Origin: Octopus vulgaris
Taxonomy: Eukaryota
Direction of reading: 5' to 3'
Assembly: GCA_951406725.2 (NCBI GenBank)
Contig: OX597815.1
Location: 88,970,001-89,034,000, forward strand
Length of the DNA stretch: 64,000 nucleotides
Shown: piece by piece, positions 13,358 to 50,414 of the stretch
How positions within the stretch are numbered: the first letter of the stretch is position 1
Layout: each line of letters begins with the position of its first letter
Translations under genes and position numbers: made by a program
Notes under the pieces: model-generated
Seen by the model: only the letters and a program-made list of their open reading frames with translations
Told to the model about the DNA's origin: nothing
The model's database searches: none

Positions 13358-13597
13358 GTTCAAATTTGCAGAAAAAACAGAAGACGAAAACAGGTTTATA
13401 AACAACAGAGTTGTATTAGTTTAACGCTCAGGAATGTGAGAAAGTCTTTTACGTTTCGAGCCTACGCTCTTCAACAGAAAGGAACATGAGGAAATAAGCA
13501 GAGAGAGAATAAAAAAAGCTTTTTGAGCGTTAAACTAATACACCTGTTTGTTGTTTGTACACCTGTCTTCGTCTTTTGTTTTTCTGTAAATTTCAAC
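13358..13597 (-). mobile_element. Fold-back Penelope-like terminal fragment containing a hammerhead-like motif
   Basis: Inverted arms 13358-13430 and 13524-13597 start right after (TA)n. The spacer reads on minus CTTT-CTGTTGA-A-GAGC-GTAG-GCTC-GAAACGTA-AAAG (13446-13481). Confidence 0.65.
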
Positions 13598-14971
13598 CAT
13601 GTATTGCACGCCCACGTGGTCGCACCAGTTTTATCATTCTTTAACCCCCTACTCTTGGGAGTTCTACCTGGAATTTCTGCACCTCTCCTCATCTACATGC
13701 CAGCCTTCCACCTGGATTACTACTGGATATACATACATACATACATACACCCCCACATACATACATACATACATACATACATACATACATACATACATAC
13801 ATACATACATACATATATATATGTATGTATGTATGTATGTATGTATGTATGTTTGTATATGACAGATTGAAAGGGAAGCCACAGTATAACTTGATTCTAA
13901 ATTTAAAAGGACTGGTTTGTTCTCAGAATTATCATTTGTTGATACAATACTGATTTTACAATGCATTCTAAAATATAAATATGACAATGTACGGTAGGTC
14001 ATATAGTATGTTACTAGGATATCCTTGGCTTTGAGTCAGGTGTAAGAGAAAGACAAATACAAAAAAGAAAAAATAGAGAAGGAAAATTGTAGTGGAATCT
14101 GAACTCATATTTCAGATGTACTCTATATCATGCGATCTAACTTCTAACAAATATGGAGACCTTTATAGCATATTATATTAGCTCGTCTGAAAAATTCCTT
14201 CCAAACAGATATCGGTTCATAAACGCCTTTGAATGCACATCACGACTTTTGTTTCATATGTGCAAATATAGAACTCCTTACTGTAGGATAAATAAGTATA
14301 CATTCACGTGTAAATATTTCACTTAACAGTATCCTGCAGAGAAAGAAATTTACTGTATCTCAAACGAGATAAATTGATCTCAATAACTCCTTAGAGAGCA
14401 AACTAATAATTGATGTCATAGTTCAGATACAGAGGTGAAAGCTAATGGAATTACACAATTTTCCAGTATAACACAGACCGAAGGCCAGATGAGAGAGAAA
14501 TCTACAAATAGTATTATTCCCAATCATAGAGAAACACATTTTCAGAACAGCTGAGTGTGTAAGTATAATGAAATTTTGAGATTATTGACGGAGGAAGAAC
14601 GTAGACAATGTCCCACGAGAATATAATCAATATCTCCTACCCGCCTTACTCGGTTAGAACCAGCCTGAACAATATGTCCTTCAATGAAGAAGAGTTTTGT
14701 GTCTTTCCTTACATACCAATCACCAGAACATACCAAAAGTAGAGTATAAAATTGATCAGGTGTAGGAGAGGATGATAAAATATTCTGCTTCATCAACTTA
14801 TTATTATTCCTTGTGTTATAAATTCATTTTTCTTCATAGGTAAACATACACACACAAATACACATACTTTCGCTCAGACATACACACAAATATATATTAA
14901 TAATTATACTGCAGTTGGTTCAATCGATTGAATCAGTTTTGGTTGAATAGTTCGCATTTTGAATAGTAATT

Positions 14972-15029
14972 ATGACTGTCTTAGTCTATCTCATTGTGCA
15001 TGGCTGTCTTAGTCTATCTCATTGTGCAT
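14972..15029. repeat. 28-bp tandem duplication
   Basis: ATGRCTGTCTTAGTCTATCTCATTGTGC occurs twice in tandem. Confidence 0.9.
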
Positions 15030-17708
15030 AGATACTATGATTGGTGAAAAGAGGAGTAGATGATGGAGATAGGATACCTGGTATCCATATACGAAACTAA
15101 CAGTTCGTATCAAGTCAGTGCACTGCATTGTGCCATTGGAGAAAATATTTTAAAAGTCTAGAGCAGCTAGAGACAGGTTCTATTGCTGTAAGCAGCTGGA
15201 AGGGTTCTAAAACTGATGCACTTATTTGTCAACTTGCAGTACTGAGTACGATGATGCCAGTGAAAAAGCTACGTTAGAAATGCAGACGTTCAACCATGGC
15301 CTTATTGGCTCTGATCTGTAAAATACCTGAAGAATAAATCACTGAAAATAGACAGACGAGGACAATGATATGAGAAATTATTGTAGATATTACTGCATTA
15401 ACAAATAGGCACTCGCTAAATTATACATCTGCCATTAGTTCAAAATGAGTGATGATGGTGGGATTAGCGTCAATGAAGAGGAGACAAATGTAAGAATACT
15501 GAAGATTTTGTTCTTGCTTTTTGTCTATCAAACATTTATGCAAATATTTTTTCTCAAATGTGGGGAGGGGTAAACTGAACAATTTGCTGTTATATTTTAA
15601 ATACCCACATCTTGTGTGTAGGATGTGGTCATCAAGTAAAGTGTGGTGGCGTGGGGCTTGTATGGCGTCGCTGTGTGTGTGTGCGCGCGAGTGTGTGTAT
15701 GTGTGCGTGCGCGCGTGTGGTTTTAGAAGTTTATTATAATTTGTAAAATAAATTCCAATTCTTTGACACAATAATTGAACTTTTATATATTGTAATGTTG
15801 TACTATTTATGCATATTTAGTATATTTATATGTATCCAATATTGCATAACAGTATAATATCAACATCAACAATCGCTTAACTCAGACCACTGACTACAAA
15901 ATGCAACATTACCCCTATTAGCACGGGGATCGAGGATGTTTTAGTAGAATGTGTCATATCTTCTACTAACTGTTTTAGGTAACCATATATTGTAACATTG
16001 TTCAGGCATTGTCATCCGCTCTGTTATTTATAACTAAGAGAATTATACAATTCTGAGGTAAACATATATTTAGTACTGATGAAAGGAAATGAACGCTCGA
16101 CATTTGAATCCTACTTTGGTTCTTTATAAGTTTAGCTAACATTACTCTCTTCAAATTATATTACCAGGATTAATTATCGCACTTTTATTGACACAGATAT
16201 ATTAGGGGATTAAATGCTATATAGTGTCAAATTTGGTGTCTTACTTTATTGATTATAAAGTTTATTTCATGGTAGAGGGATGGATATATAACTATCAGTC
16301 ATTCGATTATTCTGACATAATTGGCATTATGCTGGAGAGAGCGATATGTATATTATTGGAACACAGTAAAGGAAGTTAATTACAATTGTTATGATATACA
16401 TTTCTTTTGTTTGATATGAACAAAGGGCCATGTAATATTGCTGAAAGAACTGGTGACGGAGTAATTGAAACGGTGAGAATATGACTAAATTCATCGTATT
16501 TAAGTTCATTCTCCAACTTATTCATTTGAAATCAAATCGAGATCGTACTTAAATTTCATCGTTTGAGGTTGATAAATAAGTGTCTGGTATATAGTTGGAG
16601 TTAATGGAATCGACACTCGCCTCCTTTACATATTTGTGACAATCTGCAGTTGTAAACTATGATTATAATAGCATGAATAAATGAGATGTTCATGACTTAT
16701 TAGAGAGGAAAAACGGTGAAAATGTTATCAATTGTCTACAAATTGAAATCTTAACCATGCTGCGAGATTGGCTCACCTGGAATTTATCACTATTGTATAA
16801 CGCTAGACAAAATTCATTGCAAAATTGCTTTCCAGATGTTCAAAACATAATTTGAGTATATTATCAGTTGGTTGTGTATGGAATACAAAATTTCTAAAAC
16901 ATATTACCATATTTTTTTATATAGATTAAGATCCCAATAACAAGTGCTGCAACAAACCAATATAAACATAAGCACAGTTACATAAGCATATACTTGTACA
17001 GAAAATATCTACCACTCACAAGCACACACAAAGAGATATGCATACAGACAAATATATACACCCATTCACACGCACAGACAGACTCACTCAGCACGCGCGC
17101 ACGCGCACACACACACACACACACATACACACAATTACAGAATCTAAATACAGAAATCACTTGAGACGAAATGTAAAATAAGTAAATTCTATTCTCAGAA
17201 CGATTTCGATAAGATGAAAATTAATCTTAAGAATATCATTATTCATTAGTCATGTTGTTCGAACTTATTTACGAAAGAATTCAGCGTTCAACATTATCAC
17301 AGACTTTTACAAAGAATTTTTTTTTTATGTATTTGTAAAATGTAAATAAATAAATGTTATTTCTTCTTGAAAATTATCAGGAACTATCTGCAGGTGATTT
17401 TTATTGAATAAATTATGATATATTTCAAAGTGAGCTGACAAACAGACTCTTCGTTCTGTTATAAGTCAATTCGCTGCACTTTGTGTCACGGTTAATATTT
17501 GAAGACCTCGAGAGCAAATCAGCTTTCAAGAACGAGACACATTCCAGCTTCGCTCGGGGTAGAATAAGAAGTCAAAACTGGAAGATAAAGGAAGCAGTAA
17601 TTAAATTACATTGTATACACATTATTATTATTATTATTATTATTATTATTATTATTATTATTATTATTATTATTATTATTATTATTATTATTATTATTAT
17701 TATTATTC

Positions 17709-49559: not shown

Positions 49560-49990
49560 ATACATGCCAGCAGACACACAAATACTCACACAAACACGCA
49601 CAGAAGCACACACATAAGCAAAAAAAGAAAACATTACAAAACCGCACACACATAAACACATACACACATACACTCATACAAAAGAAAACATCACAAACAC
49701 ACACACACAACTCCGTACAAACACACACAAACACACGCACAAGCACACATATACACACATACACTCAAAAGAAAGCATCGCAAAAATACACCCACACATA
49801 CGCGCACACCCACACCCACACCCACACATACACTCACACACAAACAAAAGAAAACATCACAAACGCATACACACACATACACCAGCACAACTCTGTACAA
49901 ACACACACACAAACACATACACACAAAAGAAAATATCGCAGAAACACACAAACACATACGCGCACAAACGCACCTACACACATATGGGGA
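49560..49990. repeat. Degenerate CA-rich minisatellite
   Basis: Recurrent AAAGAAAACATCACAAAC, ACAACTCYGTACAAACAC and CACATACGCGCACA blocks. Confidence 0.7.
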
Positions 49991-50374
49991 TCACACGCAT
50001 ACACACAAATGGAGACACTCAAAAGAATACATCTAACCCAAAGAGAAATAATAACTCAACAAGACATTCTTCACAACATACGCACCCATCAACACAGCTG
50101 GTCATTTTTCAAAACATACTAAAAGGACATTGAACACAATAAACACACTTACACACTCAGGTGGATATAAAACTCATTCAATAAATGCTTTTTGTCACTC
50201 CCTTGGCATGAACGCACAAAGAATTCTTTTAGACAATAGACACCCCTTCTCTCACAATCGAACTCTATACCAAACTATATTTAAAGAAGACATCAACGAA
50301 AAATCTCCAGACATGTTCTTGACTCCCAGACAGAAGATAAGCTGTTCTACTTCAAATTTTTATAAATTTTTACT

Positions 50375-50414
50375 GATATTTGATAAGATGTGATGCATCG
50401 AAACCGGTAATATT
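50375..50414 (+). ncRNA. Minimal type I hammerhead motif, U3-A8 core variant
   Basis: GATAT-TTGATAA-GATG-TGATG-CATC-GAAACCGGTA-ATATT. All three stems can form and stem III is the palindrome ACCGGT, as in the 20159 motif. Confidence 0.6.

Follow-up and report, generated by a model that had tools for sequence, protein, structure and literature searches.

Probable Penelope-like 3′ ends with hammerhead ribozyme motifs in a 64-kb window of the Octopus vulgaris genome

Background

Individual animal genomes contain thousands of heterogeneous and mostly solitary minimal hammerhead ribozymes (min-HHRs), among them a U3-A8 variant in the Penelope-like elements (PLEs) of Cercyon (Cervera & de la Peña 2014, PMC4209133). 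PLEs have been described as favouring (TA)n targets, as leaving inverted copies and partial tandems of their pseudo-long terminal repeats (pLTRs), and as including non-autonomous elements (Craig et al. 2021, PMC8557442), and an account of PLE insertion forms of the same geometry holds pLTRs to be sufficient for an element to be mobilised in trans (PMC3846280). PLEs were also proposed as the mobiliser of animal non-LTR retrozymes (Cervera & de la Peña 2020, PMC7229834), which have since been argued, mainly from vertebrates, to be non-autonomous PLE derivatives (Li et al. 2026, 10.64898/2026.07.22.740005). In SM-alpha of Schistosoma, a short non-coding element, a hammerhead follows a promoter of the RNA polymerase III (Pol III) type (PMC6765202, PMC8490949). 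Here these systems are compared with a 64-kb window of Octopus vulgaris DNA (the whole stretch analysed: contig OX597815.1, positions 88,970,001 to 89,034,000), in which an original prediction, made from the sequence alone, had placed nine hammerhead-like motifs and had interpreted them as one class of non-coding, microsatellite-anchored retroelements.

The motifs very probably lie in the 3′ ends of PLEs of mixed kinds, likely inserted at TA microsatellites by Penelope reverse transcriptase (RT) and endonuclease. Among them are one coding element that was cut short, at least one non-coding unit of high abundance, likely mobilised in trans, one short element that is likely tRNA-headed, and four 3′ fragments. 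The population is real, mixed and of a known kind, and the single class first proposed is too simple. The implied novelty is low, as min-hammerheads of PLEs, retrozymes, (TA)n targeting and short interspersed nuclear elements (SINEs) combining Pol III promoters with hammerheads are already published; a literature search whose coverage excluded most subscription journals found nothing on octopus hammerheads or PLE-mobilised tRNA SINEs. The window concentrates many examples of a known system in one place and is useful to repeat annotation, as Rfam misses these hammerheads. The curated Octopus vulgaris annotation of 2026 (PMC13282606) has no ribozymes in its main text; it counts 893 recently active families of "unclassified SINE" and lists 30 recently active Penelope families, which are possible helpers.

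State of the motifs

All nine motifs are present where they had been placed. The minus strand carries six of them (core position 3 at 13477, ~19267, 20227, 25056, 25960 and 36345) and the plus strand three (37168, 45525 and 50380); the hyphen that trails each coordinate in the original prediction is not a strand mark. They are mostly real but often damaged hammerheads. The core (CUGANGA/GAAA/UH, or its U3-A8 form) and stems I and II are complete in the two copies read from the sequence as intact, 20227(-) and 50380(+), and carry one or two lesions in the six damaged or atypical copies, 13477(-), 19267(-), 25056(-), 25960(-), 36345(-) and 37168(+). The 45525 motif, where these features do not come together, was rejected as a hammerhead: it is a near-perfect 105-bp palindrome that has neither stem I nor a palindromic stem III. 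The tiny self-complementary stem III of the original prediction is borne out by a palindromic stem III or loop 3 in eight of the nine copies, and the triplet is GUA in seven. The G10.1-C11.1 pair that closes stem II is present at 13477, 20227, 25056 and 50380 and missing in damaged copies and in most of the 475-bp family described below. The motifs sort into about seven families, so that their description as mostly unrelated is roughly right, except that the 13446 and 19237 sites are one family and the 36315 site is related to it.

The window is 35% GC with 149 rows of tandem repeats, and the motifs could in principle be chance matches in AT-rich, hairpin-rich repeat DNA with no ribozyme ancestry. 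They were compared with 40 dinucleotide shuffles (200-nt blocks) using a type I descriptor that was modelled on the published min-HHR consensus but drafted once the sites were already known. A strict core with stem I of at least 4 bp and stem II of at least 3 bp is found at two sites against a shuffle mean of 0.075 (maximum 1). When one core mismatch is allowed and both stems have at least 4 bp, there are seven sites against a mean of 0.325 (maximum 2), and three of the seven have a Watson-Crick palindromic stem III against 0.075 in shuffles; four of the seven (5695(-) twice, 47467(+) and 58683(-)) are additional to the nine motifs. The loosest descriptor is barely enriched (10 sites against a mean of 2.5, maximum 6), which favours chance, as do the lack of an Rfam hit and the 45525 palindrome, probably a case of this kind. 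The strict excess over shuffles, the compensatory stem changes of the 25016 family, the conservation of the core within the variable 475-bp family and the position of one hammerhead 3′ of a GIY-YIG end argue against it, and an origin by chance is most unlikely. The nine motifs thus stand as to their places and their excess over shuffled sequence, with 45525 doubtful and intact copies in the minority.

Like the min-HHRs of metazoan PLEs (PMC4209133), those of the window are of type I, have a tiny palindromic stem III and an extra base after A9, include the U3-A8 form, belong to many families and are mostly solitary. They differ from that account in having stem III palindromes of 8 and 12 nt, in the absence of G10.1-C11.1 from most of the 475-bp family, and in U6 of family A. 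Further degenerate hammerhead-like cores, absent from the original prediction, were noticed at 21757(-), 5173(-), 58683(-) and 49175(-); those at 21757 and 5173 fail the descriptor and were rejected as hammerheads.

TA tracts and insertion geometry

The predicted adjacency to (TA)n tracts is confirmed: (TA)4 or longer lies within 300 nt 3′ of the cut at nine of nine motifs against 27% of positions, and (TA)6 or longer at eight of nine against 18%, in a test for which three cut positions were entered 1-5 nt off. A terminal direct repeat (a partial tandem of the pLTR type), an inverted copy or both are found at five of the nine sites (13358, 19893, 24958, 25742 and 36849), a geometry that matches the PLE insertion forms of PMC8557442 and PMC3846280. 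The insertion ends are ~90-270 nt away from the predicted ribozyme cuts, so the cut does not set the insertion end. Insertion ends that ignore the cut site fit the finding that a PLE hammerhead, although protein-assisted, is dispensable for insertion in vitro (PMC11167929). Together with the GIY-YIG remnant, TA adjacency and insertion forms support the original link to PLEs and to minimal hammerheads of the dimer type.

A truncated coding PLE at 50375

The 50375 element ends at ~50552, before TA repeats. When window positions 49280-49486(+) were used as a query with the in-frame stop read through as X, 42 proteins matched at E<=1e-3, the best of them with 57% identity. Two of the matches are to GIY-YIG proteins of 745 and 738 aa, at their C-termini; Pfam recognises GIY-YIG in all nine of the matches that were scanned and RT in one, the 745-aa protein. 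The nearest full-length relatives (P0021 and P0028) bear the CX2-5CxxC linker that PMC8557442 gives for Neptune and Nematis PLEs. A profile of 121 full-length relatives has a single match in the window, at 49196-49462 (E 2.4e-13; next match 1.6; reversed control 1.3). The statement that no GIY-YIG open reading frame (ORF) is visible was therefore wrong for this element, while its counterpart for RT holds, as the RT domain of the full-length relatives has no match in the window with this profile. Pfam found no PLE domain in 450 stop-free ORFs of the window, drawn from the 514 of 825 ORFs of at least 40 aa that passed a complexity filter, with two CA-rich ORFs at 49490-50130 swapped in; Pfam is insensitive here because the true GIY-YIG remnant was also missed, both alone and read through. 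A word-index protein search likewise failed to detect the remnant.

The 50380 hammerhead is ~920 nt downstream of the GIY-YIG remnant. Their shared strand, their order and an end that abuts TA repeats at 50552 lead us to infer that the two are one insertion. By its sequence the 50375 element is a 5′-truncated coding PLE, a remnant rather than a complete element. It resembles the endonuclease-bearing Neptune and Nematis PLEs (PMC8557442), which have a C-terminal GIY-YIG domain, pLTR tandems, inversions, a microsatellite bias and a hammerhead near the 3′ end, and whose linker is present in its relatives. It differs in that ~60 codons remain and in its long CA-rich 3′ untranslated region (UTR), which extends for ~920 nt to the hammerhead, and its likeness to this clade is by the linker motif of the relatives only.

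From many metagenome-assembled genomes (MAGs) in the genome contigs collection, 64 PLE loci of host animals were recovered (L003-L066), and in nine of these 64 loci from other animals a descriptor with a palindromic stem identifies similar hammerheads. One locus (L047:4535-4590, plus strand) has a decayed hammerhead, read by eye, ~770 nt 3′ of the PLE ORF; its stem III is long and nearly palindromic and it lacks the G10.1-C11.1 pair, in which it resembles the 475-bp family. The 3′ UTRs of L047 and of the 50375 element have no homology at the DNA level (score 26, shuffle maximum 45).

Fragments without a defined 5′ end

The 13446, 19237, 36315 and 37164 sites are short 3′ fragments of 170-430 bp in which no 5′ end is defined, and may stem from autonomous or non-autonomous parents. 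The two copies of family A are 79% identical over 173 bp, share an identical 3′ end point and both have U at position 6; the family-A pattern has no match in the genome contigs collection. In the 36849-37276 fragment, the inverted 3′ copy is at 36849-36924 (89%).

The 475-bp and 537-bp units

The 25742-26336 insertion contains a 475-bp unit with an identical 98-bp terminal repeat (25742-25839 = 26217-26314), followed by a 22-bp inversion (26315-26336). Contigs of four sequencing runs, each contig ~90 nt long, were placed on 25840-27170. Run X1 is from organism A, possibly the window's own sample, run X5 is from organism B, and run X17 is only guessed to be RNA. Summed contig depth, which is not copy number, is 19,667-167,707 on the unit in X1, where the flank has 51, and 12,875-183,280 in X5, where the flank has 99; in organism E the unit is almost uncovered. 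No RNA data set was listed for this locus, which says nothing about its expression. The head-to-tail joint 26314->25840 has a depth of 2,154 in X1 and is present in one X17 contig, and X5 has near-equivalent joints. This locus holds 1.2 units and one hammerhead; the junction is common in the family, and the contigs are too short to display arrays. Of the placed X1 and X5 contigs, 1% continue from the unit into unlike sequence. One flank contig of organism B aligns only from 26336, leaving 24 letters unaligned, which suggests that organism B has an empty site for this insertion.

Among the variants listed, none of 28 falls in the core, the GAAA or the palindrome. Of the 28 listed substitutions 24 could be mapped: 13 are unpaired, eight keep a pair and three break one, which supports the stems from one side of the pair. 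The triplet, GUA in the window copy, is GUC in 97% (X1) and 52% (X5) of the depth of the 25960 family. On its hammerhead strand the unit folds strongly (z -5.75). It is likely non-autonomous and carried in trans.

The 537-bp unit has the same layout and a fold z of -4.0, and its lack of an ORF and its 116-bp terminal repeat make it plausible that it too is non-autonomous. The original prediction of non-autonomous families mobilised in trans is thus upheld for the 475-bp unit, plausible for the 537-bp unit and the tRNA-headed element, and mistaken for the 50375 element.

Every motif might instead be a 3′ end (pLTR) that broke off from an ordinary coding Penelope element, with no self-standing non-coding families. 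This account holds for the 50375 element, is compatible with the four fragments, and agrees with the interpretation of most solitary min-HHRs as truncated PLEs (PMC4209133). It does not accommodate a 475-bp unit that is deep throughout, is joined head to tail in the DNA of two species and is left by so few contigs, nor the 25016 family, in which a tRNA-like head rather than an ORF lies upstream in two animals, and as a general explanation it is improbable.

A second alternative, the one originally favoured, is that all or nearly all sites are distinct non-autonomous, retrozyme-like families that spread through self-cleaved, circularised RNA. The two ORF-less units with their terminal redundancy and strong folding invite it, as does the junction in a contig of the presumed RNA run; yet the junction also occurs in DNA and hence does not show a circle, one element is a truncated coding PLE, insertion ends are well away from the cut sites, and a single hammerhead per locus fails the two-unit criterion of Li et al. 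We hold this alternative to be highly improbable. The multi-copy 475-bp unit is nevertheless like the animal non-LTR retrozymes in being ORF-less, AT-rich and a few hundred bp long and in having a type I hammerhead, a head-to-tail junction and strong self-pairing; the window's units differ in that they are dispersed at (TA)n as insertions of 1.2 units, of which one bears a PLE-type inversion, and in that each locus has one hammerhead. The 475-bp unit offers a concrete invertebrate test of the model that derives retrozymes from PLEs.

A fragment at 24863-24922, adjoining the tRNA-headed insertion, is ~70% identical to the 475-bp unit over 60 bp. The 475-bp unit, the 537-bp unit and this fragment have ACCAGnnnCCTAG in common, which is A-box-like on the plus strand. 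As a common cis-element, ACCAGnnnCCTAG (19947, 20485, 24910 and 26164) was rejected, the motif having been chosen post hoc.

A probable tRNA-headed element at 25016

The composite insertion at 24958-25578 is bounded by a 13-bp direct repeat (24945-24957 and 25579-25591), a candidate target-site duplication, and in it a spacer of 260 nt, (AAC/AAT)n, separates the tRNA-like head from the ribozyme. Neither ARAGORN nor Rfam recognises the tRNA-like heads of the window and C16 copies as tRNA; SINE heads often escape both programs.

Three insertions of a homologous hammerhead family are found in contig C16 of assembly G001 (loci L070-L096), a 539-kb contig in a bacterial MAG that is chimeric: ~256 kb of 61-66% GC are followed by ~283 kb of AT-rich, microsatellite-rich animal DNA with PLEs and hammerheads. 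This animal part has no BLAST match to the masked window, and neither the 475-bp unit nor family A nor the commonest interspersed repeat of the window is matched in G001. The homologues of the 25016 hammerhead in L086, L083 and L087 have an intact C3-G8 core. Stem covariation is seen in this family only: across seven aligned copies, four of nine named pairs are changed on both sides, which none of 500 shuffles reaches. The 3′ tails of the inverted copies in the window and in L086 align with a score of 69 (shuffle maximum 34), and a pair of A and B boxes lies within 450 nt upstream in three of four independent insertions (the window, L086 and L087, not L083) against 0.7% of positions. The pattern of the family matches 56 loci in genome contigs, of which three are the C16 copies already in hand and the rest are mostly bacterial by their titles, and none in viral contigs. 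A separate pattern scan of metagenomes gave two matches, rejected as chance occurrences inside bacterial genes.

A fourth C16 element (L082:17990-18175, plus strand) has a tRNA-like head, seen by eye and missed by the motif test, directly before a canonical type I hammerhead. This hammerhead lies between TA tracts in a layout like that of SM-alpha and has the same 8-nt stem III palindrome as window positions 37195-37205.

From its sequence, the 25016 element is a candidate PLE-carried SINE; a SINE that landed independently in a PLE fragment may also explain the window copy. Like SM-alpha, the element is short and non-coding with a head resembling a Pol III-type promoter 5′ of the hammerhead. 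Its family differs from SM-alpha in having PLE-style minimal hammerheads and inverted 3′ copies, in being dispersed rather than tandem, and, in the window copy, in the 260-nt microsatellite. A tentative reading, to which we give somewhat less than even weight, joins these observations: the lineage would have SINEs that truly belong to the Penelope system, with a Pol III head derived from tRNA, a minimal PLE hammerhead, a conserved 3′ tail and PLE-style inversions made by PLE enzymes rather than those of a long interspersed nuclear element (LINE), conserved between two animals whose other repeats share no BLAST match, alongside a 475-bp unit with a variant hammerhead that spreads as a circle-templated passenger. 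If PLE enzymes do move the tRNA-headed family, a SINE-PLE partnership would be defined and the question of what the PLE hammerhead does would gain a short natural template; this family is the part most worth following.

Weighing the evidence and a proposed mechanism

Several observations count against mixed PLE 3′ ends as the source of the motifs and against the readings built on it. Only two of the nine copies are intact, and among predicted dimers an active-type fold is clear only for 25960 and 37168. Rfam gives no hammerhead at threshold in four sub-regions that hold five of the nine sites; its best match below threshold is RAGATH-1 (16.9 bits, E 4.4, 20161-20257), and microsatellite hairpins dominate the output for the whole window among the matches listed. 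Rfam does recover the canonical hammerhead of the comparison locus L082 (37.4 bits). Eight of the nine motifs lack an adjacent PLE coding remnant detectable by Pfam, by the profile or with 104 PLE ORF pieces from other animals, and the sequences searched contained no autonomous partner whose ends match those of any unit. Three of the four double changes in the seven-row alignment of the 25016 family come from the window copy by itself. In the 475-bp family, position 11.1 is A in 78% (X1) and 62% (X5) of depth, so that the G10.1-C11.1 pair cannot form; because most members lack this conserved pair, the ribozyme of the family may be weak or dead. The figures for this family also derive from depth in short contigs, with variants and loose ends taken from the matches listed and X1 possibly representing the window's own sample.

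If the motifs are mixed PLE 3′ ends, as we consider very probable, their RNA would arise by read-through or, for the tRNA-headed element, likely from Pol III. Two hammerheads would then join by base-pairing of their palindromic stems III and cleave after NUH, as the literature suggests, probably slowly or with the help of protein; most window copies are predicted to be dead. A PLE RT-endonuclease, acting in cis or in trans, would bind the RNA, nick (TA)n and start cDNA synthesis from a constant position, ~90-270 nt 3′ of the site where the ribozyme cleaves; the 3′ ends seen at TA tracts are fixed, as this requires. The 5′ truncations and inverted copies of the window would come from synthesis that stops early or switches strand. 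If a tandem or circular template were copied beyond its head-to-tail junction, the 1.2 units of the 475-bp insertion would result, and that junction is present in the contigs. In this scheme catalysis, circles, the use of Pol III and mobilisation in trans are the presumed steps.

Coordinates of the features

Table 1. Hammerhead-associated features of the window (positions in the 64-kb stretch; HHR, hammerhead ribozyme).
Feature	Position	Strand	Description
Family A 3′ fragment	13358..13523	-	core 13477 (A6U); stem II 4 bp; predicted cut after 13450; 3′ end abuts (TA)n
Inverted copy of the 3′ end of the 13358-13523 element	13524..13597	+	85% over 75 bp; PLE-type inversion
Family A copy two	19153..19328	-	HHR core with 3-nt deletion; TA tracts on both sides
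ORF-less 537-bp unit with 116-bp terminal direct repeat	19893..20545	-	repeats 19893-20008 / 20430-20545; between TA tracts
Intact type I hammerhead of the 537-bp unit	20159..20234	-	stem I 7 bp; full core; palindromic stem III; GUA; predicted cut after 20166; strict match
Composite insertion	24958..25578	-	inverted 3′ copy (25493-25577), inverted head piece, tRNA-like head, (AAC/AAT)n, HHR, tail
HHR of the 25016 element	25017..25061	-	core 25056, U3-A8; 5-bp stem II; GUU; first stem I pair broken
tRNA-like head	25369..25441	-	A box 25434-25424; B box 25389-25381; tRNA spacing
Young insertion	25742..26336	-	475-bp ORF-less unit 25840-26314; 3′ end abuts (TA)15; high-copy family
HHR of the 475-bp unit	25867..25966	-	stem I 6 bp; full core; long stem II without G10.1-C11.1; 12-nt palindromic stem III; GUA
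Family-A-related 3′ fragment	36224..36400 (5′ limit approximate)	-	core 36345 intact; first pairs of stems I and II broken; 3′ end abuts (TA)29
Fragment with damaged HHR	36849..37276	+	HHR 37164-37210; 8-nt palindromic stem III; predicted cut after 37206; ends at (TATC)n
Near-perfect 105-bp palindrome	45470..45574		hammerhead core letters; no stem I; no palindromic stem III
PLE GIY-YIG endonuclease C-terminal remnant	49280..49462	+	one in-frame stop; about 60 codons left
Intact minimal hammerhead	50375..50414	+	core 50380, U3-A8 variant; palindromic stem III; GUA; predicted cut after 50409

Other repeats of the window

A complex direct and inverted repeat at 42149-42972 (77% over 670 bp), with GAAA and an 8-nt palindrome at 42295(-), is possibly another decayed insertion of the PLE type. 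LINE RT remnants (Pfam RVT_1) that are unrelated to the hammerheads occur at 271-1172 (271+) and 62114-63725 (62114- and 63016-). A Tc1-type transposon at 33546-35154 has 203-bp inverted ends (94%) and a frameshifted transposase, and more mariner/Tc1 remnants are at 31962 and 53752(-). An abundant SINE-like interspersed repeat of 180-240 bp, probably an octopus SINE, is found at 29402-29632, 38433-38963, 43284-43525, 51023-51184 and 58265-58367, and is in tandem at 38433-38912.

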